In this document: piece after piece, positions 4,197 to 60,588 of the stretch
Position numbering within the stretch: position 1 is the stretch's first letter
Layout: the number at the start of each line of letters is the position of its first letter
Sequence record: NC_055712.1
Source of the DNA: Escherichia phage phT4A
DNA: 64,000 bases
Direction: 5' to 3' (one strand)
Notes under the pieces: model-generated
Databases searched by the model: none
What the model was told of the DNA's origin: nothing
Seen by the model: the letters and a program-made list of their open reading frames with translations, nothing else
Made by a program: the position numbers and the translations under genes

Positions 4197-4526
4197 TTAA
4201 CGAAGATAAACCACATAACCGCTTTGGTCAATCGCGCGGTCTGCGTCATTGAAGATATTACCACGAATGCCTTTTGCTGGTGCTTTCCAGCTTGCAGGTT
4301 TCAGGATATTACCATCATTATCGATGAAAGCGGCAACAGAACGCTGATTGAACATTTCACCAGTTTCTTTGTTGCGAGTATCCTGAACAACGCGATGATA
4401 TTTGCGGCCTTTCTCCAGAAAGAAAACAGTTTCGAAAGGAGAATCTTGGAAACGAGCGTTACGCGCTTTGTACATTGCTTCCATGAAAGGGGCTGCTTTT
4501 TCTGCGAGGATTTCGAAAGTGTTCAT
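4197..4526 (-). CDS. hypothetical protein
   Basis: 109 aa; SD AGGAGA upstream; preceded by conserved ATCGAAACGAAAC leader. Confidence 0.55.
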   Translation of the reverse strand: MNTFEILAEKAAPFMEAMYKARNARFQDSPFETVFFLEKGRKYHRVVQDTRNKETGEMFNQRSVAAFIDNDGNILKPASWKAPAKGIRGNIFNDADRAIDQSGYVVYLR

Positions 4527-4585
4527 GGTATATCTCCTAAAGTGTGTTTCGTTTCGATGTAAGTACTATATCAAAGATGGTTATT

Positions 4586-4810
4586 CTATGCAAGGCTTTT
4601 TTCGTTATCCATCAAATATTTTAAGTGTTCTTTTAATGCAGGGAGTTCGTTCAAATGGCGTTGCTTAACTTTCTCGTACTCTTTGCGTTCCCAGTTTTCA
4701 AGATTGCTTGCCAACGCTTCATCACAATAAGCGATCCCGCGTTCTGCATCCTGAACTTTCTGTTTCCATTGTGCAACTGCTTGTTGATAAAGAGAACCGT
4801 TAACCATCAT
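4586..4810 (-). CDS. hypothetical protein
   Basis: 74 aa ORF with SD GGGAGG upstream. Confidence 0.5.
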   Translation of the reverse strand: MMVNGSLYQQAVAQWKQKVQDAERGIAYCDEALASNLENWERKEYEKVKQRHLNELPALKEHLKYLMDNEKSLA

Positions 4811-4883
4811 AATAATTTCCTCCCTTGTTTCGATGGGGTAACTATACCAAAGCTACCCCAGAATGTTTTAACAAAAAGTGCTA

Positions 4884-5147
4884 TTAGTAGGTATCCAGTT
4901 TATACATTTTGCACCAGTTCATGAATTCTTCGAAAGTCTGAGTATTAACACGTTTTTCCTTCTTCACTTTCTTAGTGATTACAGGACGGTTAGTAAAACG
5001 TTTTTGCATTTTCACAGTGATTGCTACTTTATCGCCCAGGTCTTCAACCTTTTCAACCAGCGCCCACTGAGAACCAATTTCAGCGCCGAAAGTCAAACCA
5101 ACAATCTCACCTGCTTTAACGTGTGCTGCATATTTTACTTTAACCAT
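4884..5147 (-). CDS. hypothetical protein
   Basis: Start moved to MVKVKYAAH (ATG 5147); longer track ORF runs into the upstream hairpin/promoter. Confidence 0.5.
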   Translation of the reverse strand: MVKVKYAAHVKAGEIVGLTFGAEIGSQWALVEKVEDLGDKVAITVKMQKRFTNRPVITKKVKKEKRVNTQTFEEFMNWCKMYKLDTY

Positions 5148-5228
5148 TTTCGTATTCCTTTCTCTGTTTCGTTTCGATGAATACAAGATACCAAAAAGCC
5201 TCCCGCAATGCAAGAGGCTTCTTTAACA
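5148..5228 (-). repeat. promoter-stem-loop cassette, family R (copy 2 of 2; partner at 50961-51046)
   Basis: About 85% identical over ~75 nt to 50961-51046 in reverse orientation: hairpin containing TTGCAT, -10-like TATCTT, ATCGAAACGAAAC leader. Confidence 0.6.
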
Positions 5229-5235
5229 AAAAATG

Positions 5236-5538
5236 CTATTTTATTTCTTTGAGTAATTTACGGATCCCGCCGCCCTGTGTCTTATCAAAGATTTTCTTTG
5301 CATCAATAACAGAAGTGATTATGTGGTAGTTGTTACCTTTTCCGTCAAACTCAAACTCGACCTTGTAGTCACTACGAAATTTCACAAAAACAAATTCACC
5401 TGCAAAGTGCTTACGAAACTGTTTTTCGTTAATGTCCAACCATTCCTGTGTATCATCTAACTGATACATGCGACAAAACAGGATCGAACCCATTACAGCA
5501 ATCACGACAAGGATAGCTAACGCGAATTCTGACATCAT
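5236..5538 (-). CDS. hypothetical membrane protein
   Basis: 100 aa, N-terminal TM (LAILVVIAVMGSILF). Confidence 0.5.
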   Translation of the reverse strand: MMSEFALAILVVIAVMGSILFCRMYQLDDTQEWLDINEKQFRKHFAGEFVFVKFRSDYKVEFEFDGKGNNYHIITSVIDAKKIFDKTQGGGIRKLLKEIK

Positions 5539-5759
5539 TTACCCCTGTTTACTGATTGACGGTGCAATGATTTAGGCACAACCGGATTTCGGTATGGTTT
5601 GACTTTATGGATCGTGGGTTCTTCCCCAACCAAATTAGGAAATTGGCTGTTCCATTCCATCGAAAATGGATAGGGTGATGACTTTAACTCTTCGATCATA
5701 CAGTTTACTAAACGGTCGCCGATTACACCCAAAGCCGCCCCAATAATCGCTATACGCAT
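5535..5759 (-). CDS. hypothetical protein
   Basis: 74 aa ORF, ATGA-type overlap with neighbour. Confidence 0.4.
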   Translation of the reverse strand: MRIAIIGAALGVIGDRLVNCMIEELKSSPYPFSMEWNSQFPNLVGEEPTIHKVKPYRNPVVPKSLHRQSVNRGK

Positions 5760-5762
5760 AAA

Positions 5763-5912
5763 TCACCCCTTAATTGTGTCAAGTACAGTAAACCAGTCAT
5801 GAAGCCATATCGTTGTTCTTACAGCGATATACGTTAACAAACTAATCAATGATACCGCTCCGCAAATAGCCAGCGTAATCAACAGCCGGATTTCAAATTT
5901 AGTAAAATTCAT
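5763..5912 (-). CDS. small membrane peptide (49 aa)
   Basis: MNFTKFEIRLLITLAICGAVSLISL...; SD AGGAG upstream of ATG 5912. Confidence 0.45.
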   Translation of the reverse strand: MNFTKFEIRLLITLAICGAVSLISLLTYIAVRTTIWLHDWFTVLDTIKG

Positions 5913-5929
5913 ATCAATCTCCTTTCTGA

Positions 5930-5975
5930 GAACCCAATATAACAAAAGCCCTCAACCGAAGTCAAGGGCTTTGTT
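5930..5975 (-). repeat. promoter-stem-loop cassette, family S (hairpin with TTGACT in loop, then TATATT)
   Basis: aaagcccTTGACTtcggttgagggcttttgtTATATT on minus strand; related copies at 20950-20995, 50311-50385, 60250-60302. Confidence 0.6.
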
Positions 5976-6257
5976 TTAAATTTTTACTAGTTTTGGCAAT
6001 CGAAGAACTATACCAGGATGGATCAGACGTGCATCCGGAATAGAATCACGGTTGATTTTAGCGATATCAGGCCAAAGTTCACCAACACCATACAGTTTCT
6101 TTGCTATAGAATATAGGCTATCGCCTGGTTGCACGACATAGCGATCAGATTCAATCTTAACCAGATCCTGGTTAATGATATCATCAAAGGCTTTTGCTTT
6201 CGCTTCGTTAATCGTGTTCCCGTAGTAATGGCGATCCATAATAGTTAATGTGATCAT
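5976..6257 (-). CDS. small LysM-domain protein
   Basis: YVVQPGDSLYSIAKKLYGVGELWPDIAKINRDSIPDARLIHPGIVLRLP matches LysM consensus pattern. Confidence 0.6.
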   Translation of the reverse strand: MITLTIMDRHYYGNTINEAKAKAFDDIINQDLVKIESDRYVVQPGDSLYSIAKKLYGVGELWPDIAKINRDSIPDARLIHPGIVLRLPKLVKI

Positions 6258-9555: not shown

Positions 9556-10215
9556 ATGGACTACCGTAAAATTTACACCAATCTTATAGAAAAAGCAAGA
9601 GATAGAACACTAAATTGTTACACAGAAAAGCATCATATCATCCCCCGATGTATGGGAGGTTGTGACGATCATGATAATTTAGTAGAACTTACCGCAGAAG
9701 AACATTATGTAGCCCATCAACTTCTTGTCAAGATGTATCCACACAATAATAAGTTGATATATGCTGCTAATATGATGTGCGTCAACGCAACACAGAGAAA
9801 TAATAAAGCATATGGATGGATCCGCAGAAAGTGGATATCTCAGATATCAAAAGACAGGACAGGGACAAAGGCAACAGAAGAACAACGCAAAAAGATGTCA
9901 GAATCCCATAGGGGAGACAAAAACTCTATGTATGGGTTACGCGGTGATAATCATCCTGCTTATGGTCAAAAACCCTGGAGAAATCAAATAACAATGAAAG
10001 GAAAGCATGAATGGAGGTATGCTGGGATTTTCTATGACTGGTATATTAACGATATTAAAGCTGGAATCTATAAAAGACAAGGACACAAGAGAATGCTACA
10101 AGAATTGCAAATTGCAACAATCTCCCGTGTTCCTAGAACATCAATCGAGTTATTCAAAAAGGGGTGGAACCCTTACGAAGATACCGATTGGGTTGAGTGG
10201 GCTAATAATCAATAG
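9556..10215 (+). CDS. freestanding HNH homing endonuclease (Mob-like), opposite to flanking genes
   Basis: HHIIPRCMGGCDDHDNLVELTAEEHYVAHQ HNH motif; paralog of 31484-32209. Confidence 0.8.
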   Translation: MDYRKIYTNLIEKARDRTLNCYTEKHHIIPRCMGGCDDHDNLVELTAEEHYVAHQLLVKMYPHNNKLIYAANMMCVNATQRNNKAYGWIRRKWISQISKDRTGTKATEEQRKKMSESHRGDKNSMYGLRGDNHPAYGQKPWRNQITMKGKHEWRYAGIFYDWYINDIKAGIYKRQGHKRMLQELQIATISRVPRTSIELFKKGWNPYEDTDWVEWANNQ

Positions 10216-14205: not shown

Positions 14206-14232
14206 TACAAAAAAGCCCCGAAAGGGGCTTAA
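14206..14232 (-). terminator. terminator hairpin AAGCCCCTTTCGGGGCTT plus U-run (minus sense)
   Basis: GC stem followed by T-run downstream of gene 14237-14491. Confidence 0.5.
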
Positions 14233-17868: not shown

Positions 17869-17968
17869 NNNNNNNNNNNNNNNNNNNNNNNNNNNNNNNN
17901 NNNNNNNNNNNNNNNNNNNNNNNNNNNNNNNNNNNNNNNNNNNNNNNNNNNNNNNNNNNNNNNNNNNN
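17869..17968. other. assembly gap (100 N), true length unknown
   Basis: Run of N; polymerase C-terminus (roughly 110 aa by comparison with T4 gp43) is missing. Confidence 0.9.
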
Positions 17969-20643: not shown

Positions 20644-20927
20644 TGCGCGTCCTCCATTCTTTTCATAAAGACTTCTTTTGCTTGTTGGATCAAGTCCAGA
20701 GATTTTTTAATACGCTCATAGAAATGAGTGGTTTCAACTTGATTGCATAACAATGTGTACTCTGAAATGTTACGATCGTAAAATCCAGGAAAGTAGTGCT
20801 GTGCATAGCTGTAAGTGCGGGTATCTGACAGATTGCAAGTTAACGATAACAAGATGTCATCTTTTACAATCGGGATGATCAAAGTTTCGTTGGATTTGAT
20901 TGAATCCATGATTTCGTTAATAGTCAT
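20640..20927 (-). CDS. hypothetical protein
   Basis: 95 aa ORF, SD GAGGG. Confidence 0.5.
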   Translation of the reverse strand: MTINEIMDSIKSNETLIIPIVKDDILLSLTCNLSDTRTYSYAQHYFPGFYDRNISEYTLLCNQVETTHFYERIKKSLDLIQQAKEVFMKRMEDAQ

Positions 20928-20949: not shown

Positions 20950-20995
20950 ACACCCAATATAACAAAGCCCCTGCACGAATGCAAGGGCTTTTTGA
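20950..20995 (-). repeat. promoter-stem-loop cassette, family S (TTGCAT variant)
   Basis: aaaagcccTTGCATtcgtgcaggggctttgtTATATT on minus strand. Confidence 0.55.
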
Positions 20996-36520: not shown

Positions 36521-36559
36521 AAAATGGGGCTTCGGCCCCTTTCTTAACAAGGTAAGAGA

Positions 36560-38054: not shown

Positions 38055-38154
38055 NNNNNNNNNNNNNNNNNNNNNNNNNNNNNNNNNNNNNNNNNNNNNN
38101 NNNNNNNNNNNNNNNNNNNNNNNNNNNNNNNNNNNNNNNNNNNNNNNNNNNNNN
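38055..38154. other. assembly gap (100 N), true length unknown
   Basis: Run of N; roughly the C-terminal third of NrdA (and possibly further genes such as nrdB) is missing. Confidence 0.9.
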
Positions 38155-38591: not shown

Positions 38592-39729
38592 AATTATCAA
38601 TACCCTTTACAAACAACTCATGCAGTTGTGTGGTGAATCCGAAACATTTTTCTTCGTTGATCAAGTAACCGTGATGGGTACACCTGTTCGAATCTTTAAC
38701 TATCGCATGGCCTCATATACAGACTGGCTAAAGCCTGGTGCTCTGGAATGTCGCGGTATCATGTTTGAAATGGATGGAGATACCCCCGTATCAATCATCA
38801 GCCGCCCTATGGAGAAGTTTTTTAACTATGCCGAGGTAAAGGCATGGGAAGCGCTTAACGAGTCTCCTATTGAATTAGGCGAAGTTTTAGACGTGATGAT
38901 TAAAGAAGATGGTTCCTTGATCTCAACTTTCCTTGACGGTGGATTTCTGGCGGTCAAGTCTAAAGGTTCGGTTAAATCAGAACAAGCTATGGATGCGCAC
39001 AGCGTGTTAATGGCAAATCGTGAATTGCTGACCCGCTTAACTGAGATCGCTAAAGAAAACTATACGGTGAACATGGAATACGTTTCCCCGAAAAACCGTA
39101 TTGTCGTTGGTTATGATTCTCCTGATCTGCGTATCCTGAACGTTCGTCACAACATCACGGGTGAATACATCCCTTATGATGAACTCTTTGCTGACGCGCT
39201 GTTACGTGCGTATCTGGTTAAGCGTGAGAATATCGAAGTACTGGATCTGGATGCATTCGCAAAAGAAGCATATCAGAATGAAGGATTCGAAGGCTATGTT
39301 GTTCTGACAACGAAAGGGTTTGTAAAAATCAAAACAAACTGGTATGTCAATCTGCATCGCACAAAAGATAGCATCACCAACAATAAGGATCTTTTCCTAA
39401 ATATTGTTGAGAATACGGTCGATGACCTGAAACAGCTATTCAGTTCGGATCTGGTCTCTCTGAAAAAGATTGACGATTTCGAAAAACTTTTCCTTGATAG
39501 TCTCAATCGTTTGAGTGCAAAAGCGTTCAAAGCTATTGAAGATAATAAAGGGAAATCGCGTAAAGATTTTGCTATCAGTCTAAGCGCGGATTTGTCAAAC
39601 GACGGTCGGATCATCTTCGGGCCTCTTATGAAGTACTTCGAAGAAACCGATCCACAAAAACTGGTCGATCGCATCATTGAAATGATGGTTAAAAATTACG
39701 ATCAGTTCATTCCTGGAGAGTACAAGTGA
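38572..39729 (+). CDS. rnlA: RNA ligase 1 (RnlA, gene 63 equivalent)
   Basis: 385 aa; collinear with recalled T4 Rnl1 (ALECRGIMFEMDG, IKEDGSL, FKSKGS). Confidence 0.85.
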   Translation: MTKAQTKIINTLYKQLMQLCGESETFFFVDQVTVMGTPVRIFNYRMASYTDWLKPGALECRGIMFEMDGDTPVSIISRPMEKFFNYAEVKAWEALNESPIELGEVLDVMIKEDGSLISTFLDGGFLAVKSKGSVKSEQAMDAHSVLMANRELLTRLTEIAKENYTVNMEYVSPKNRIVVGYDSPDLRILNVRHNITGEYIPYDELFADALLRAYLVKRENIEVLDLDAFAKEAYQNEGFEGYVVLTTKGFVKIKTNWYVNLHRTKDSITNNKDLFLNIVENTVDDLKQLFSSDLVSLKKIDDFEKLFLDSLNRLSAKAFKAIEDNKGKSRKDFAISLSADLSNDGRIIFGPLMKYFEETDPQKLVDRIIEMMVKNYDQFIPGEYK

Positions 39730-40262
39730 AATCATTTGGCGCATATAGCCGAACGATAGAACAAGAAAAAGCAGGGATTGATTCCCTGCTTTCTTTCGTT
39801 GATGTTTTCCCCGAAACTGGAAAAATTTACTGGAATGATAAAGCATATCATAAAAGTAAGAGAGGAAAAGAAGCGGGTTCTATTGTTTGTGAAGAATACC
39901 CTTATACGAAAATAAAGTATGCTGGGAAAAATTACATGAGGCATAGAATAATATTTTACTATGTTCATGGTTACTTACCAATCATAGTTGATCATAAAAA
40001 TGGTCTTGATTTTGGTGATTGTATTGATAATCTTCAAGAATCCGATCCCGTTCATAATATATTGAAGAAAAACAAAACCAGAAAATCTAAAACTACCACA
40101 TCAAAAGGGGTTGACTATCGTTCTTCTCGTGGAAAATATAGAGCACAAATACGGATTAATGGTAAAACGAAACATATAGGATATTATGATACAGAAGAAC
40201 AGGCGTCTATCGCATATGAGGAAACTTTGAATGAATATCAAAAGCATCTTGGGTATGATTAA
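39726..40262 (+). CDS. HNH endonuclease with AP2 DNA-binding domain (freestanding homing endonuclease)
   Basis: IVDHKNGLDFGDCIDNLQ HNH core; C-terminal YRSSRGKYRAQIRINGKTKHIGYYDTEEQASIAYEE AP2-like; paralog of 47175-47693. Confidence 0.8.
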   Translation: MKSFGAYSRTIEQEKAGIDSLLSFVDVFPETGKIYWNDKAYHKSKRGKEAGSIVCEEYPYTKIKYAGKNYMRHRIIFYYVHGYLPIIVDHKNGLDFGDCIDNLQESDPVHNILKKNKTRKSKTTTSKGVDYRSSRGKYRAQIRINGKTKHIGYYDTEEQASIAYEETLNEYQKHLGYD

Positions 40263-41037: not shown

Positions 41038-41421
41038 AATCTGTTTATGACTATTGGCGTTCCGGGTAGTGGAAAAACTACCTGGGCGCATGAGAAAGCC
41101 CGTGAATTGGGTAATACTGTTACGATCTCTCGCGATGATCTGCGTAGCTCTTTGTATAATGCNNNNNNNNNNNNNNNNNNNNNNNNNNNNNNNNNNNNNN
41201 NNNNNNNNNNNNNNNNNNNNNNNNNNNNNNNNNNNNNNNNNNNNNNNNNNNNNNNNNNNNNNGATACCAGGACAGATTTTGAAGTAAAAGAAGAAATTTT
41301 GTTTGACAAGATTTTAGATAAGTATTATCCTGTTATTGCAGTGGACGATAGAGACACTCCGGTCGGGATGTGGCGAGCAAACGGGATTCCGTGCTTACAA
41401 GTCGATTATGGTGATTTCTGA
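41035..41421 (+). CDS. pseT: polynucleotide kinase/3'-phosphatase (Pnk), middle part lost in gap
   Basis: N-terminal kinase P-loop GVPGSGKTTWA; C-terminal DTRTDFEVKEEILF...AVDDRDTPVGMWRANGIPCLQVDYGDF matches T4 Pnk C-terminus. Confidence 0.8.
   Translation: MNLFMTIGVPGSGKTTWAHEKARELGNTVTISRDDLRSSLYNXXXXXXXXXXXXXXXXXXXXXXXXXXXXXXXXXXDTRTDFEVKEEILFDKILDKYYPVIAVDDRDTPVGMWRANGIPCLQVDYGDF
41163..41262. other. assembly gap (100 N), true length unknown
   Basis: Run of N; about 200 aa of Pnk missing by comparison with T4. Confidence 0.9.
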
Positions 41422-43408: not shown

Positions 43409-43485
43409 GGCCCCTTAGCTCAATAGGTAGAGCTAATCACTCATAATGGTTAGGTTCCCGGTTCAAGTCACGGGAGGGGCCACCA
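43409..43485 (+). tRNA. tRNA with CAU anticodon (Met, or Ile if lysidine-modified); T-stem imperfect
   Basis: Hand fold: 7-bp acceptor GGCCCCU/AGGGGCC, canonical D and anticodon arms, loop CUCAUAA, encoded CCA; T-stem has a mismatch. Confidence 0.6.
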
Positions 43486-46737: not shown

Positions 46738-47178
46738 ATGGACATCGGATCAGGTAGTCAGTATCCCTCATGCGCTTTAAGCAACTTTGCCCCGCATCCG
46801 TTTACGTTCGACGGGGTAGAATGCGCATCGATGGAGGGGCTTTTACAAAGCCTGAAATTCAGCAATCCAGACATGCAAGCGCATGTATGTACGCTGGTTG
46901 GTAAAGCCGCCAAGTTCAAAGGCAAGAAAAAGAAATGGTATCGCGATCAGACCTTGTACTGGAAAGGTACACCGATCCATCGCGAATCCGAAGCGTACCA
47001 GATTCTTATTGAAAATGCGTACAATGCTCTTTTCCTGAATGACGGGTTCCGCCGTGCGCTGGCAGCAACCGGAAAAAGTACCTTGACACATTCAATGGGG
47101 AAATCTCGTATGAACGAAACTATTCTGACAGAACGAGAATTTATTAGAAATTTGAACAGGTTGAGAAATTTGTTATGA
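46738..47178 (+). CDS. NADAR / YbiA-like (DUF1768) domain protein
   Basis: ALSNFAPHPFTFDGVECASMEGLLQSLKF matches the YbiA/NADAR signature. Confidence 0.7.
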   Translation: MDIGSGSQYPSCALSNFAPHPFTFDGVECASMEGLLQSLKFSNPDMQAHVCTLVGKAAKFKGKKKKWYRDQTLYWKGTPIHRESEAYQILIENAYNALFLNDGFRRALAATGKSTLTHSMGKSRMNETILTEREFIRNLNRLRNLL

Positions 47179-47693
47179 AAAGCGCTGATAACCTAAAAAA
47201 AGAAATTGAAGGAATCAAGAAATTATTGCATTATATCGATGTTGATATAGAGACTGGAATATGTACTTGGAAAAGACCCAGAAAATCTATAAATGTTGGT
47301 GATGTTGCTGGATGTAAGAAAGAAAAATATCATGTTATTTGTTTCGATTATAGGTTGTATAGACGACACAGGATTGTGTTCTATTTTGCTAAAGGTTACT
47401 TACCTCAAGTAGTAGACCACATTCATGGTGTTGAACATGGCGACGGTATTGATAATTTACAAGAGGCATCGCAAAGACAAAACGTTATTAAAAAGAAAGG
47501 ACAGAAAAACAACAAAAGTGGTTATCGAGGGGTGTGTTGGTCGTCTCGTGCTGAAAAGTATCGAGCAACTATAGGTATTGATGGAAAACAAATACATTTA
47601 GGATATTTCGATACTCCAGAAGAAGCAAGTAAAGCATATCATCAAAAAGCGAAAGAAACTTTTGGTGATTTTTATAATCCATTGGTTAAATGA
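47175..47693 (+). CDS. HNH endonuclease with AP2 domain (freestanding homing endonuclease)
   Basis: VVDHIHGVEHGDGIDNLQ HNH core; YRGVCWSSRAEKYRATIGIDGKQIHLGYFDTPEEASKAY AP2-like. Confidence 0.8.
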   Translation: MKSADNLKKEIEGIKKLLHYIDVDIETGICTWKRPRKSINVGDVAGCKKEKYHVICFDYRLYRRHRIVFYFAKGYLPQVVDHIHGVEHGDGIDNLQEASQRQNVIKKKGQKNNKSGYRGVCWSSRAEKYRATIGIDGKQIHLGYFDTPEEASKAYHQKAKETFGDFYNPLVK

Positions 47694-48188: not shown

Positions 48189-48799
48189 AACCTGTTATTC
48201 TTACCGATATTGACGGGATCGCCGTAAAATGGCAGTCGGGGTTGCCTTTCTTTTTGTCTAAGCACAACATGCCTACTGATATTGCATTGGAAATGGTTAC
48301 GGATGAAAAATTTCGTGATATGACCGAAATCTTCGGATGTGATCAGCAGTTGGCTAAAATCCTTATGGAAGAATACAATAACAGTTCTTTCATTCGTTAT
48401 CTGAATGCGTATGATGATGCATTGATTGTGATCAACCGTCTGAAAACGCAGTATGATTTCGTTGCCGTTACCGCTCTGGGAACAACACCAACGGCAAGCC
48501 TTAACCGAATTGCTAACCTGAATACTCTTTTCCCGTCTGCGTTTAAAGAGGTGATGGTCGTGGGCCACGGTGAAACAAAAACTCATCGTTACCTGGAAGC
48601 AAAAGCAAAGTATGGTAATCGTCTGGTTTGCTTTGTTGATGATCTCGCGATAAACTTAAACGAATGTCATAACGTCATTAGTCAGTTGCCGTTATTCCAT
48701 ATGTTACGTGGTGAACGTGAAGAAACAAATGCACCTCACCAGTTAGTAAAATCGTGGTTTGAAATTGAAGAGAAACTAAATGATCTTGTCAATCCTTAA
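48185..48799 (+). CDS. HAD-superfamily hydrolase-like protein (putative nucleotidase/phosphatase)
   Basis: N-terminal ILTDIDGI (DxD HAD motif I); TTG start. Confidence 0.45.
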   Translation: MKPVILTDIDGIAVKWQSGLPFFLSKHNMPTDIALEMVTDEKFRDMTEIFGCDQQLAKILMEEYNNSSFIRYLNAYDDALIVINRLKTQYDFVAVTALGTTPTASLNRIANLNTLFPSAFKEVMVVGHGETKTHRYLEAKAKYGNRLVCFVDDLAINLNECHNVISQLPLFHMLRGEREETNAPHQLVKSWFEIEEKLNDLVNP

Positions 48800-50309
48800 T
48801 GAACTTGCGTCTACTCTGAAAACCAAAGAGAAAGAAGCAATTTTAAAACGTAATGCCGATAATGAATTATTGAAAGAAGTTTTCCGCATTACGTATACAA
48901 AACAGATTATGTTTTATGTGCGTCAATTTCCTCTGGTAGAAGGGAAACCAGGCACAACACCGCTTTCCGATGCAATCAAAGCATTGCTGGAAGATTTAGC
49001 AAGCCGGAAATATACAGGCAATGCAGCGCGTGATCGTTTACTGGATATTGTATCATCAGTGAACATTAACGATCGTGAAGTGCTACGCCGTATCATTAAC
49101 CGCGATCTGGAATGTGGTGCTGGCACAACCTTACCAAACAGGGTATGGAAGAAACTCATTCCTGAACAGCCTCAATGCCTCGCTACGCCGTTTAGTGAAA
49201 AGGCTTTACGTCGCATCATTTTCCCTGCTTACTCGCAGCTTAAAGCCGATGGTGCGCGTTGTATGGCTGATTTGTTGGAAGCATTAAACCGTAAAGTATC
49301 GAGGGCGGGTAACGAGTACGAAGGGTTAACCCAACTTGATATCGATCTGAAAAAGATTCGCGATTATCTGGGATATGATGTAGTTCTGGATGGAGAATTG
49401 ATTTATGTTCCTTCCGGAACCGTACCAACATTACCTGAACCTGAAACAGACATGCCTTTTTCTTTATCTGCTTTCATGGACGATGATGATAACGACATTG
49501 CGTTATTTGCGGAAGAAGTTCGCAAAGTATCGACCCCAGAAGAAGAACAGGCCGAAGCAAAACGCGAAGAAGGGAACGGGATCGTAAACAAATCTCTGAA
49601 AGGGACGATCACCGAAGAAGAACAGCGAAACATTGTTTATGTTGTTTGGGATATTATTCCATATGAGGTGTATTACGGCGAAGCTGAAAGTGTTCAGACT
49701 TATGATGAACGGTTTAGCCTGTTGCGTGATATCCTCCTGGATCTTTCTCTGCCTTCTGTTCGTTTGATTCAGTCTAAGCTGGTTAATAACATTGCAGAAG
49801 CGAAACAGGACTATAACAATTACCGCAATGACGGTAAAGAAGGTTCTATTCTCAAAAACAGAAACTTCAAATGGAAAGATTCGCGAGTAGCCGATCAGGT
49901 TAAGCTGAAAAACAAAACCCCGATTGAACTACGGATCATTGATATCTACGCGCACACTAAAGAAGACCATAAGGTCGGCGGGTTTGTGGTGGAAGATTTA
50001 TCCGGAATGGCTCGAACGAATACCGGATCTGGGTTAACTGATACCGATTATCGTTACGATGATGATGGTATTACCCGTGTATACATTCCATTAGATGAAC
50101 GTGGTGAACTGGATCGCGAATACATCATGGCGCATAAAGATGAATACATTGGGGCCATTGTAGAAATGGAAGTTGACGGCCTCCAGAAGTCGAAAACGCG
50201 TAAGAAAGGGGAACCGGAATACAGTTTCTTCCTTCCTATTATCAAGAAGATAAGACGCGATAAGACCGAACCCGACGATATTCATGTTGTCTTTGCAGAT
50301 CTATTTTGA
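48780..50309 (+). CDS. 30: ATP-dependent DNA ligase (gp30)
   Basis: 509 aa; adenylation motif KADGAR; collinear with recalled T4 ligase. Confidence 0.9.
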   Translation: MILSILNELASTLKTKEKEAILKRNADNELLKEVFRITYTKQIMFYVRQFPLVEGKPGTTPLSDAIKALLEDLASRKYTGNAARDRLLDIVSSVNINDREVLRRIINRDLECGAGTTLPNRVWKKLIPEQPQCLATPFSEKALRRIIFPAYSQLKADGARCMADLLEALNRKVSRAGNEYEGLTQLDIDLKKIRDYLGYDVVLDGELIYVPSGTVPTLPEPETDMPFSLSAFMDDDDNDIALFAEEVRKVSTPEEEQAEAKREEGNGIVNKSLKGTITEEEQRNIVYVVWDIIPYEVYYGEAESVQTYDERFSLLRDILLDLSLPSVRLIQSKLVNNIAEAKQDYNNYRNDGKEGSILKNRNFKWKDSRVADQVKLKNKTPIELRIIDIYAHTKEDHKVGGFVVEDLSGMARTNTGSGLTDTDYRYDDDGITRVYIPLDERGELDREYIMAHKDEYIGAIVEMEVDGLQKSKTRKKGEPEYSFFLPIIKKIRRDKTEPDDIHVVFADLF

Positions 50310-50310
50310 T

Positions 50311-50385
50311 AAAAAGCCCTTGACTCCGGTCGGGGGCTTTGTTATATTGGGCCTATCGAAACGTAAATCACTAAGAGAATATATT
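50311..50385 (+). repeat. promoter-stem-loop cassette, family S (hairpin with TTGACT, TATATT, ATCGAAACG)
   Basis: aaaagcccTTGACTccggtcgggggctttgtTATATTgggcctATCGAAACG. Confidence 0.6.
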
Positions 50386-50955
50386 ATGACTAGTAGTTAT
50401 CAGAAACACAAAACCCTTATGGCAAACCTGTCCGGTAAACATATCGACGAAGTAAAATCTCTGCTGACAGTAACCGAAGGTTCCCGTTTTGACACAAATC
50501 ACATTATCAAACCTTCTGTGAAGAAAGTACTGAAAGTGATTTACCGACATCCGGTGTATCAGTGCGTTCATATCATGAACAGCAACGCATTTATTTTCGT
50601 ATATAACGAATCCGATGATAAGTGTGTTGGTATTTTCCGAAAACCTAACTTTGAATGCATGAGCGAAGCGGCTGTTGCAACCCCGATCGTTGAAGAATAT
50701 CCGGATTATGTTCAACGCAACATGCGTTATGTGCAATCCCGACTTGATTATGCATACGATTTCAATTCTGACGCGGTAGAAGCGCTGGCGGATATCCTTT
50801 GCAAAAACCAGAAAGATCGTCAAATGACAAAATATCTGACTGACCCAACACCGTCAACAATCCGAATTTCTGTCGAAGTTCCGTTTGAAAATCATTTCAT
50901 GGCGGTTGAAGCACTTGCTAAACTTGGTTTAGAAGTGAAAACAGAAGCCGTTTAA
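50386..50955 (+). CDS. hypothetical protein
   Basis: Start at MTSSYQ with SD; 189 aa. Confidence 0.5.
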   Translation: MTSSYQKHKTLMANLSGKHIDEVKSLLTVTEGSRFDTNHIIKPSVKKVLKVIYRHPVYQCVHIMNSNAFIFVYNESDDKCVGIFRKPNFECMSEAAVATPIVEEYPDYVQRNMRYVQSRLDYAYDFNSDAVEALADILCKNQKDRQMTKYLTDPTPSTIRISVEVPFENHFMAVEALAKLGLEVKTEAV

Positions 50956-50960
50956 TAGCA

Positions 50961-51046
50961 CTTTTTGTTAAAGAAGCCTCTTGCAATGCAGGGGGCTTTT
51001 TTGTATAGTGTGTTCATCGAAACGAAACAGACAAAAGGAACATCAC
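50961..51046 (+). repeat. promoter-stem-loop cassette, family R (copy 1 of 2)
   Basis: Hairpin containing TTGCAA, TATAGT -10, ATCGAAACGAAAC leader, SD; ~85% identical to 5148-5228 reverse strand. Confidence 0.6.
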
Positions 51047-59721: not shown

Positions 59722-59973
59722 TCATTTCATATCAAGTAGCCAGGAAGGGCTAGTTTCAAGCGAAATTGCAGTATATTCGTATTTTACAGTATAACCTTTG
59801 AAACCGAAAGGAATGACTGCATTTTCATTGAGATATTTTACTTTATGCTTTGCTTCTTCTTCATTCAGAGCAGCACAGACTGTTGTTTGTTCAACGTTAC
59901 CAGCAGGAGAAGTAAATTTTTCAATGATAATGTATACGCAGTTCATCCTATTGCCCTCTTTCCATTTTTTCAA
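59722..59973 (-). CDS. hypothetical protein
   Basis: ORF. Confidence 0.4.
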   Translation of the reverse strand: MKKWKEGNRMNCVYIIIEKFTSPAGNVEQTTVCAALNEEEAKHKVKYLNENAVIPFGFKGYTVKYEYTAISLETSPSWLLDMK

Positions 59974-60232
59974 GTTTCAGTGTATCCACTTGTAGTTGAA
60001 GTTTAAGAATACAACCTTTCGATATGTTATACAAGTAGTCACTAACGATTTTTGACTTTACCTGATCGTAATCAGAAGATAACGTAATCCAATCATACAT
60101 CGTTTGGTATGATGGAAGATACGTACATTGTTCTTCTTTTGATAACGCTTTAAATGATTGGTAATCGGTTGGAGGTTCCGAAGCAATTGCGGTTGTGGTC
60201 ATAAGACTAAGTGCAAGTAGTAGATATTTCAT
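59948..60232 (-). CDS. secreted/periplasmic small protein (signal peptide)
   Basis: Start at MKYLLLALSLMTTTAIASEP; family-S cassette upstream. Confidence 0.5.
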   Translation of the reverse strand: MKYLLLALSLMTTTAIASEPPTDYQSFKALSKEEQCTYLPSYQTMYDWITLSSDYDQVKSKIVSDYLYNISKGCILKLQLQVDTLKLEKMERGQ

Positions 60233-60249
60233 AATGTATTCCTCATTGT

Positions 60250-60302
60250 TTTCGATAGAACCAATATAGCAAAAAGCCCCGACCGAAGTCAAGGGCTTTT
60301 TC
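60250..60302 (-). repeat. promoter-stem-loop cassette, family S
   Basis: aaaagcccTTGACTtcggtcggggctttttgcTATATTggttctATCGAAAAC on minus strand. Confidence 0.6.
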
Positions 60303-60303
60303 A

Positions 60304-60588
60304 TCAATGCAAGAAAGATTTCACGTACTGTTCGATCTTTTCACGACATGTATCAACTGAGGTGCTTTCCGCAATTACGGCATGACATAACGCCTCGCCT
60401 CCGACCCAGAAACTCATCATGTACTGAATATCACGACCTTCCATTTCTTTTTGATGCGCTTTGATTCGATCGAAAGCGTTTTCGATTGTTTCAGTAGCAG
60501 TAAGCATTTCGGATTCCCCGTCAACCTCCGCCAGTTCCCCATCGATCATTTCGCTTTCGACTTCTTCCCAGTATACTATCGTTATCAT
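60304..60588 (-). CDS. hypothetical acidic protein
   Basis: 94 aa, Glu/Asp-rich. Confidence 0.5.
   Translation of the reverse strand: MITIVYWEEVESEMIDGELAEVDGESEMLTATETIENAFDRIKAHQKEMEGRDIQYMMSFWVGGEALCHAVIAESTSVDTCREKIEQYVKSFLH

Follow-up and report, generated by a model that had tools for sequence, protein, structure and literature searches.

T4-like phages carry repeated intergenic cassettes, the PeSLs (promoter-early stem-loops), in which a strong sigma70-like promoter is combined with a stem-loop terminator (Arbiol 2010, PMC2839356; Comeau 2014, PMC4122927). For the PeSLs of RB49 and phi1, both promoter and terminator activity were shown with lacZ fusions (PMC2839356), and five subclasses were defined by the position of the stem-loop, in one of which it overlaps the -35 box (PMC2839356). 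Recombination between neighbouring PeSL copies removes ORFans or brings them in, with a single chimeric cassette as its product (PMC2839356), and mini-circle formation is counted among the characteristics of the class; in nt-1/KVP40 and T4/PST the elements are found preferentially beside variable ORFs and indels (PMC4122927). The phage pairs covered by the PeSL papers are RB49/phi1, T4/PST and KVP40/nt-1, with no analysis of Slopekvirus (PMC2839356, PMC4122927), and RB43 receives a single mention in the 2010 text (PMC2839356). Slopekvirus is the KP15 group of the Straboviridae. The KP15 paper (Maciejewska 2016, PMC5219037) counts predicted promoters and terminators, and describes neither an overlap between them, nor dual coding, nor a link to the PeSLs.

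The four cassettes described here, S1 to S4, are to all appearances lineage-specific members of the PeSL class. They lie in a window of 64 kb, the whole stretch of DNA that was analysed, from Escherichia phage phT4A (NC_055712.1). The window contains replication and nucleotide-metabolism genes, some of the baseplate genes and several groups of small genes of unknown function; Rfam also places a tRNA at 43409-43482. It is colinear throughout with Klebsiella phage KLB23. In sequence comparison, the region from 48 to 53 kb is about 99% identical to KLB23 and Raoultella phage Rpl1, and equally so to dozens more Klebsiella myoviruses of 174-178 kb from the genus Slopekvirus, and it is 60-80% identical to Pseudotevenvirus genomes (RB43, Lw1, Margaery, and Cronobacter and Enterobacter phages). 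With the PeSLs the S copies share a sigma70-like promoter, a stable stem-loop, a position that fills the intergenic gap from stop codon to ATG, and genome-wide repetition next to ORFans.

A preliminary description of this DNA had listed four copies of the element, and all four are present where it placed them, near-identical to one another. Their pairwise identity is 79-88% (34-38 matches in alignments of 41-44 nt). The gapped pattern AAAGCCC-N12-16-GGGCTTT-N1-4-TATATT matches the window four times, exactly at S1-S4, and did not occur in any of 300 first-order Markov randomisations; TATATTGG is likewise found four times in the window, each time in an S copy. An IUPAC pattern of fixed length, allowing three mismatches at most, recovered only two of the four copies because the stem and U-tract vary in length by 1 nt, and the gapped pattern took its place. 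Other occurrences of GCCCTTG and TATATTG in the window were considered as further copies and rejected, since they belong to ordinary coding sequence.

The common layout runs from the stop codon of one gene through 1-6 nt to AAAAAGCCCTTGAC-TYCG-GTCGGGGGCTTT(T)-G(T/C)-TATATT-GG(G/T), then through a leader of 20-37 nt with a ribosome-binding site to the ATG of the next gene, which in S1-S4 lies 20-37 nt past the -10. On the plus strand, the core of S1 (50311-50351), delimited by its sequence and by promoter and terminator scans, begins with an A-tract (50311-50315) and contains an RNA hairpin at 50313-50340, with the 5' arm at 50313-50324, a UCCG loop at 50325-50328 and the 3' arm at 50329-50340. 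Its promoter parts are the -35 TTGACT at 50320-50325, a 17-nt spacer, TGT at 50340-50342 and the -10 TATATT at 50343-50348, followed by GGG at 50349-50351 and a predicted 5' leader (50355-50385) with an SD-like AAGAGAA, directly before the ATG at 50386. The other three copies are on the minus strand. S2 has its core at 5975-5933, a hairpin at 5972-5945 with a UUCG loop (5960-5957), TTGACT at 5965-5960, an 18-nt spacer, TGT at 5944-5942, TATATT at 5941-5936 and GGG at 5935-5933. The variant S3 (core 20993-20953, hairpin 20991-20964, UUCG loop 20979-20976) has the -35-like TTGCAT at 20984-20979, which is the TTGCAT form reported earlier for 20950-20995, then a 17-nt spacer, TGT at 20964-20962 and TATATT at 20961-20956; its 3' arm contains TGCAG, which compensates for the change to TTGCAT. 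In S4 the core (60301-60260) and hairpin (60301-60271, UUCG loop 60287-60284) accompany TTGACT at 60292-60287, an 18-nt spacer, TGC at 60271-60269 and TATATT at 60268-60263.

Each of the four cassettes fills the intergenic gap between a stop codon and a small co-oriented gene. S1 is preceded on the plus strand by the DNA ligase gene (gp30, 48780-50309, stop TGA at 50307-50309) and followed by a gene of 189 aa (50386-50955) that has no Pfam family and is seen in Slopekvirus records only. On the minus strand, S2 separates the gene of a LysM protein (6257-5976) from a gene of 50 aa (5915-5763, ATG at 5915) whose product is annotated as transmembrane in KLB23. S3 belongs to the stretch from regA to gp43 in the conserved cluster of replication genes, with regA (21358-20996) upstream and a gene of 95 aa (20927-20640, ATG at 20927) downstream, both on the minus strand. 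S4 has an unknown gene of 94 aa (60588-60304) before it and a signal-peptide-like one, also of 94 aa (60232-59948, ATG at 60232), behind it, again on the minus strand. A Pfam search with the four downstream genes (189, 50, 95 and 94 aa) returned no family. The placement of every copy directly upstream of a small unknown or accessory gene, as described earlier, is borne out in four of four cases, all co-oriented. A reading as a mobile, MITE-like element was rejected, since neither terminal repeats nor target duplications are present and the element amounts to the intergenic region as a whole.

It is quite probable, in our judgement, that the S elements are composites of an intrinsic terminator and a sigma70 early promoter, that is, PeSL-type insulator cassettes. 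From the sequence we infer termination, initiation, the start site, the early timing and the mechanism of recombination. One stretch of 40 nt would be read twice, once as RNA and once as duplex DNA. As RNA, polymerase arriving from the upstream gene would transcribe AAAGCCCUUGAC-UYCG-GUCGGGGGCUUU and then UUUGUUAUAUU, and the GC-rich hairpin of 12 bp with its stable tetraloop, followed by the U-tract, would act as an intrinsic terminator for the upstream transcript and be left on it as a protective 3' end. The S1 hairpin would form the end of the DNA ligase (gp30) transcript, and the upstream 3' ends would be expected in UUUGUUAUA, at about 50341-50348 in S1 and at the equivalent positions elsewhere. 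As DNA, the same bases would make up a strong host sigma70 promoter of the early type, in which a UP-like A-tract stands at about -44 to -40, the -35 TTGAC(T) lies within the 5' arm, the 3' arm forms a spacer of 17-18 bp, the U-tract supplies an extended -10 (TGn plus TATATT) and GGG serves as the discriminator. Open complexes tend to be stable where a G-rich discriminator adjoins an extended -10. Initiation would take place about 7 nt downstream of the -10, in S1 and S4 at the A that opens their conserved leader ATCGAAAC; with the start downstream of the hairpin, the new transcripts would be free of it and would carry only a leader of 23-39 nt with a ribosome-binding site. Each small downstream gene would in this way receive its own early transcript, at a level independent of read-through. 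Over evolutionary time, dispersed and co-oriented cassettes could serve as portable regulatory ends, and also as patches of homology for the gain, loss and swap of gene modules.

The RNA side of this proposal is documented by folding and by covariation. In RNA folding, AAAGCCCUUGAC pairs with GUCGGGGGCUUU in each S hairpin to make a stem of 12 bp, and a tetraloop, UCCG or UUCG, caps it. The sense strands of S1-S4 fold at -17.0 to -21.2 kcal/mol, with z values of -3.1 to -5.1 relative to shuffled sequences (S1: -20.8 kcal/mol, z -4.2), and the four copies rank top among the terminator-like sites of their 20-kb scans. Five to six of the 12 pairs are G-C, and the stem is followed by the U-rich, though interrupted, tract UUUGUUAUAUU, as expected of an intrinsic terminator. 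Five bases of the -35 hexamer form the innermost part of the 5' arm, and only its last T is unpaired, as the first base of the loop. TTGACT had been assigned to the loop in the preliminary description; folding and the covariation of the inner pairs place TTGAC in the inner 5' arm of the stem instead. An Rfam search of the window found no family at the S elements, the tRNA being its sole match.

Across 23 distinct family sequences, 98.6% of the cells are paired, and double-sided changes number 24, as against 8.4 in shuffles, none of 500 of which reached 24; the pattern that collected these sequences fixed the outer seven pairs of the stem, and the informative ones are the inner five. At the two apical pairs AU, CG, GC and UA all occur (as AC/GU, CA/UG, CG/CG, CC/GG and UA/UA), and pairing is lost when the partner columns are shifted by one. 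The loops alternate between the UUCG and GAAA classes across the family, as in the positional orthologue of S3 in the Pseudotevenvirus Lw1, which differs from S3 only in its loop (UUCG to GAAA) and in one wobble partner. The earlier claim that the -35 hexamer is embedded in a terminator-like stem is upheld by the folding scores and this covariation. The further claim that the architecture is distinctive did not stand, as a published PeSL subclass has the same overlap and the RefSeq record of KP15 (NC_014036) already carries overlapping features, a 'putative middle promoter' found with MEME and a 'putative terminator' found with ARNold, at the S1, S2 and S3 loci.

Operators, too, commonly take the form of an inverted repeat whose centre falls on the -35 and spacer of a promoter, and the outer GCCC/GGGC arms are common to all copies, as would suit binding by a dimeric protein of phage or host, or a cruciform, extruded by supercoiling, that gates the -35. 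Against such a DNA-level element, two to three of the 12 pairs in each copy are G.U wobbles, which pair in the sense-strand RNA only. The antisense strands fold at just -12.8 to -14.9 kcal/mol, 3.5-8 kcal/mol worse than the sense strands, because the G.U pairs turn into A.C mismatches. The wobbles and the strand asymmetry therefore favour an RNA structure in the direction of the genes over a DNA cruciform or a protein-binding palindrome. The inner arms, moreover, vary freely as long as they pair, swaps between UNCG and GNRA tetraloops included, which is unlike a sequence-specific protein site, and a DNA-level role is exceedingly improbable.

Another question is whether the elements are anything other than plain intrinsic terminators, with TATATT as the tail of the U-tract, TTGAC as stem sequence and no initiation. 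The hairpin and U-tract alone are sufficient for the terminator scans. At these sites the KLB23 record annotates only terminators, the S2 locus being a terminator there and a promoter plus terminator in KP15, and Matisse and Margaery, too, have only 'terminator' annotated at matches to the consensus. AAAGCCC...GGGCTTT followed by TATATT is, in addition, an ordinary terminator in many contigs of unrelated viruses. In IMG/VR, a pattern in which nothing but the outer stem and TATATT was fixed gave 126 matches, 34 of them (22 distinct) in Slopekvirus or Pseudotevenvirus contigs and the others in ordinary terminators of unrelated viruses; family membership was assigned by contig only, without any requirement for TTG. 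At the -35 position, (C)TTG is present in 34/34 family copies and in 8/72 distinct unrelated viral terminators (Fisher p = 4e-15), and TGn precedes TATATT in 33/34 family copies, as opposed to 1/92 copies of unrelated terminators. An SD and ATG are found by regular expression 23-39 nt past the -10 in 32/34 family copies.

Within the window, S1, S2 and S4 have TTGACT-17/18-TATATT and S3 has TTGCAT-17-TATATT, with TGn in all four. The promoters of S1 and S2 match the consensus at 10/12 positions and have the TG besides; the -35 of S3 is poor (TTGCAT, 3/6 matches), so this copy would rely on its TGn and -10. In the alignment of 23 sequences the TTG is invariant while its 3' partners toggle between A and G and between C and U, and a TTG that stays fixed while only its partners change indicates a dual constraint. 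The stem appears to be under selection for RNA pairing, with the promoter bases superimposed on it under selection for sequence. The distance from the -10 to ATCGAAAC is exactly 6 nt in six cassettes of the window, and from this constancy the start is placed at the first A of ATCGAAAC, which would be 50355 in S1, 7 nt after the -10, and is predicted to be 60256 in S4 (ATCGAAAAC). For S2 and S3 the start would be expected at about 5929 and 20949. Several features speak against elements that only terminate: TTG never changes although its pairing partners do, the spacer is held at 17-18 nt, the 6-nt gap to a conserved leader is fixed, and a 'half' cassette that has lost its 3' arm retains TTGCAT-17-TGATATAGT upstream of a gene. 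Terminators without initiation are accordingly very unlikely. The earlier description of a -35 in the stem followed by the -10 TATATT is strengthened by these comparisons, as the promoter bases are fixed in the phage group and rare in look-alike terminators.

The label given to these promoters in KP15, 'putative middle promoter; discovered using MEME', would make them phage-activated promoters of the MotA/AsiA type. TGn/-10 promoters are reported to be immune to AsiA and could remain active later in infection (Hinton 2010, PMC2988021), which would be compatible with middle-mode use. A MotA box, sought as (a/t)(a/t)(a/t)TGCTTtA with its centre at -30 and a distance of 11-13 nt to the -10 downstream, is nevertheless absent from S1-S4. 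There is no TGCTT, the region from -35 to -25 reads TTGACTYCGGT, and the sole GCTT, at -19 to -16, lies within the 3' arm. RB43, the type phage of the sister genus, has neither a motA or asiA orthologue nor a middle-promoter motif (Nolan 2006, PMC1524935), and the MEME motif is the only basis for 'middle' in the KP15 paper (PMC5219037). The gene KP15_4, which adjoins gp52, was the one positional candidate considered for MotA, and it was rejected as SprT-like. Middle-mode promoters are thus highly improbable, and an early promoter of the host sigma70 type is preferred. For Slopekvirus and Pseudotevenvirus, no mapping of transcript ends was found in the literature.

If the S elements are terminator and promoter in one, termination might also be coupled to initiation, as suggested in the preliminary description; polymerase released at the U-tract would then be recycled onto the promoter, or promoter-bound polymerase would act as a roadblock that enforces termination. 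The conjecture draws on geometry: the release site is the -10 region, and the hairpin overlaps the -35. In single-molecule work, E. coli RNA polymerase is reported to slide along after termination and to initiate anew. PeSL stem-loops, in contrast, take up five positions relative to their promoters (PMC2839356), and 'half' cassettes exist as separate parts. The variable position of the stem-loop and the 'half' cassettes argue that the overlap is compaction and not an obligatory coupling, which we regard as quite unlikely; compaction, together with insulation between transcription units, is enough to account for the layout. A broader alternative, also unlikely, is that the overlap is functional, with termination handing polymerase to the embedded promoter so that transcription from upstream would feed initiation downstream, or that the cores are kept uniform by exchange or gene conversion, the cassette and its ORF being mobile between Slopekvirus and Pseudotevenvirus. 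The 40-nt cores are 93-100% identical between the two genera, and the core genes 72-83%.

Four related cassettes accompany the four S copies in the 64-kb window, and a 41-nt consensus matches each Slopekvirus genome about 10 times and each Pseudotevenvirus genome about 4 times, at 90-98% identity. One of the four, a sister-subfamily cassette at 50953-51046 on the plus strand, consists of TAATAGCACTTTTTGTT, a hairpin with CTTGCA, TATAGT, GTGTTC and a ATCGAAACGAAAC leader, and folds at -21.4 kcal/mol. The other three are on the minus strand. The full cassette at 5240-5148 has AATAGCATTTTTTGTT, a hairpin at 5223-5193 with TTGCAT, TATCTT and a ATCGAAACGAAAC leader before the ATG at 5147, and the degenerate one at 4883-4811 has TAATAGCACTTTTTGTT, no good hairpin, TATAGT at 4846-4841 and a ATCGAAAC leader before the ATG at 4810. 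The 'half' cassette at 4604-4527 has kept its AAAAAAGCCTTGCAT 5' arm and lost the 3' arm; its TGA-TATAGT at 4573-4565 is followed by a ATCGAAACGAAAC leader and the ATG at 4526.

The cassette at 50953-51046 is chimeric, its left part corresponding to the upstream and its right part to the downstream one of two cassettes in the relatives. In KLB23 and most relatives, three small genes (about 620 bp), absent from the window, lie between these two cassettes, which have TAATAGCACTTTTTG...GTATAGTGTGTTCAT in common, and the crossover lies within GTATAGTGTGTTCAT, the 15 nt shared between the -10 and the leader. The identical junction is seen in VAC66, KLB10, ALF_ER54 and KLB1, and other genomes lose homology at the cassette or just past it. 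The cassette at 50953-51046 therefore appears to be the chimeric product of a three-gene indel. With the exception of this cassette-mediated event, at about 51.0 kb, window and KLB23 differ by indels that are either 100-N gaps or genes for homing endonucleases, and when S copies were sought at the indels relative to this 99% identical genome, none was found there.

At the level of the genus, the junctions of homology also fall at cassettes. In RB43 and RCIP0009 the ligase gene is followed directly by just one cassette, a hybrid, and the gene behind it is an orthologue (48% aa identity) of the window gene behind the second cassette, while S1 and the 189-aa gene are confined to Slopekvirus. S1 and its gene therefore look like an inserted module of cassette plus ORF. 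The S2 core is 93-100% identical to Pseudotevenvirus genomes over about 40 nt with unrelated flanks, and at S4 the homology to Pseudotevenvirus (72% in the upstream gene) stops at the cassette. Such mosaic junctions could reflect selection for regulatory ends and not recombination.

The value of these observations lies mostly in annotation. The cassettes mark the predicted 3' ends and early-promoter starts of many small Slopekvirus genes, several ORF calls in the databases cross a regulatory element (e.g., the long start given in KLB23 to the gene downstream of S4), and the KP15 record uses the name 'middle promoter' without support. The elements would also be a clean example of dual coding, with TTG, TGn and TATATT under constraint at the DNA level and the same bases under constraint as an RNA stem and U-tract. 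They would extend the PeSL type to two more genera, which include therapeutic phages of Klebsiella, Enterobacter and Cronobacter, and in both genera the cassettes probably mark sites where accessory genes are swapped. The current understanding of phage transcription is unchanged, and three of the four sites were already annotated as predictions in KP15.

Among the known systems, the PeSLs of RB49 and phi1 resemble the S cassettes in their near-consensus sigma70 promoter, AT-rich upstream segment, stable stem-loop and small-ORFan neighbours. They differ in their host phages, RB49 and phi1 belonging to Krischvirus and the S copies to Slopekvirus and Pseudotevenvirus. The S stem, AAAGCCC...GGGCUUU, carries a tetraloop of UUCG or GAAA, whereas that of RB49 and phi1 is polyG/polyC, and the S cassettes are set apart further by TGn with TATATT, the GGG discriminator and the conserved leader ATCGAAAC(GAAAC). 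The stem consensus of the nt-1 PeSLs, A3-4G3-loop-C3T3-4, represents the same terminator form of A-tract, GC stem and U-tract (PMC4122927). In nt-1/KVP40 and T4/PST, however, the stem-loop is just upstream of the promoter, while in the S cassettes it contains the -35 and forms the spacer (PMC4122927), and the nt-1 promoter consensus, TTGYVH...TAWWAT, is unlike the S promoter (PMC4122927). As promoters, the S elements are like the T4 early promoters of the UP/-35/TGn/-10 type in their TGn and in the A at -11 and the T at -7 of the -10 (Hinton 2010, PMC2988021), and like the predicted early promoters of RB43 in the A-rich stretch from -40 to -44, the G at -33 and TTGAC, the last of these shared with RB49 as well (Nolan 2006, PMC1524935); the T4 and RB43 descriptions concern the promoter alone, and the S promoter is superimposed on a terminator hairpin. 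Finally, the S modules recall the lambdoid 'morons', gene modules with a start and stop of their own that can be inserted between resident genes (PMC1524935). Unlike morons, which are single acquisitions of atypical GC content, the S cassettes form a dispersed repeat family, and the terminator in each belongs to the upstream gene.

Six cassettes in the window carry a conserved leader, ATCGAAAC(GAAAC), that begins exactly 6 nt past the −10 hexamer, with starts at 50355 and 51016 in the plus-strand cassettes and at 60256, 5178, 4834 and 4558 on the minus strand. The same leader, at the same spacing, is also carried by the Pseudotevenvirus RB43 and by Klebsiella phage RCIP0009, and it probably represents the transcription start together with the initial transcribed sequence.

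The cassette at 50953-51046 (plus strand) is chimeric and marks the site of an indel of ~620 bp comprising three genes, MVRA207-209 of the closely related Klebsiella phage KLB23. In relatives, two direct-repeat cassettes flank these three genes (4455-4545 and 5087-5170 of the stretch L001), and the crossover lies within GTATAGTGTGTTCAT, which is common to both. Slopekvirus isolates vary at this indel, and VAC66, KLB10, ALF_ER54 and KLB1 share the state of the window. A mosaic junction also falls inside the cassette in RCIP0009 (2810-2901 of L005, the RCIP0009 stretch), where the ligase is Slopekvirus-like (92% identity) and an S-like hairpin is followed by the RB43-type leader and an RB43-type downstream gene set.

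The gene downstream of S4 is annotated in KLB23 from an upstream start as a 118-aa protein (window 59948-60307, minus strand; 11587-11943 of the relative's stretch L003), a call that reads through the cassette. Starting instead from the SD and ATG at 60232 gives a protein of 94 aa with a signal-peptide-like N-terminus, MKYLLLALSLM. Matches to the cassette consensus are covered by "hypothetical protein" annotation in several other records too.

Three free-standing homing-endonuclease-like ORFs lie on the plus strand (9556-10215, 39726-40262 and 47175-47693), one with a NUMOD3 motif and two encoding paralogous proteins with HNH_3 and AP2 domains; the first and third of the ORFs explain insertions relative to KLB23. 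The window also contains three runs of exactly 100 N, which are assembly gaps or else masked sequence, at 17869-17968, 38055-38154 and 41163-41262, where KLB23 has 453, 2206 and 599 bp; they lie within or close to the regions of DNA polymerase, nrdA/nrdB and polynucleotide kinase. A single tRNA, with a CAT anticodon (43409-43485, plus strand), is detected by ARAGORN and Rfam; directly downstream of it a second tRNA (Gln) is annotated in KLB23 and KP15, detected by tRNAscan-SE 2 only, according to the KP15 paper (PMC5219037). GC hairpins that are perfect palindromes, with a tetraloop and with T-runs on either side (2063-2080, 14213-14230, 36526-36539 and 39766-39794) fall outside the S family and are candidate bidirectional terminators.

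Of the four cassettes that cluster within 1.5 kb on the minus strand at 4500-6000, one is S2 and the other three (one full, one half and one degenerate) belong to the sister subfamily; together they set apart very small genes, an arrangement characteristic of a hyperplastic region.
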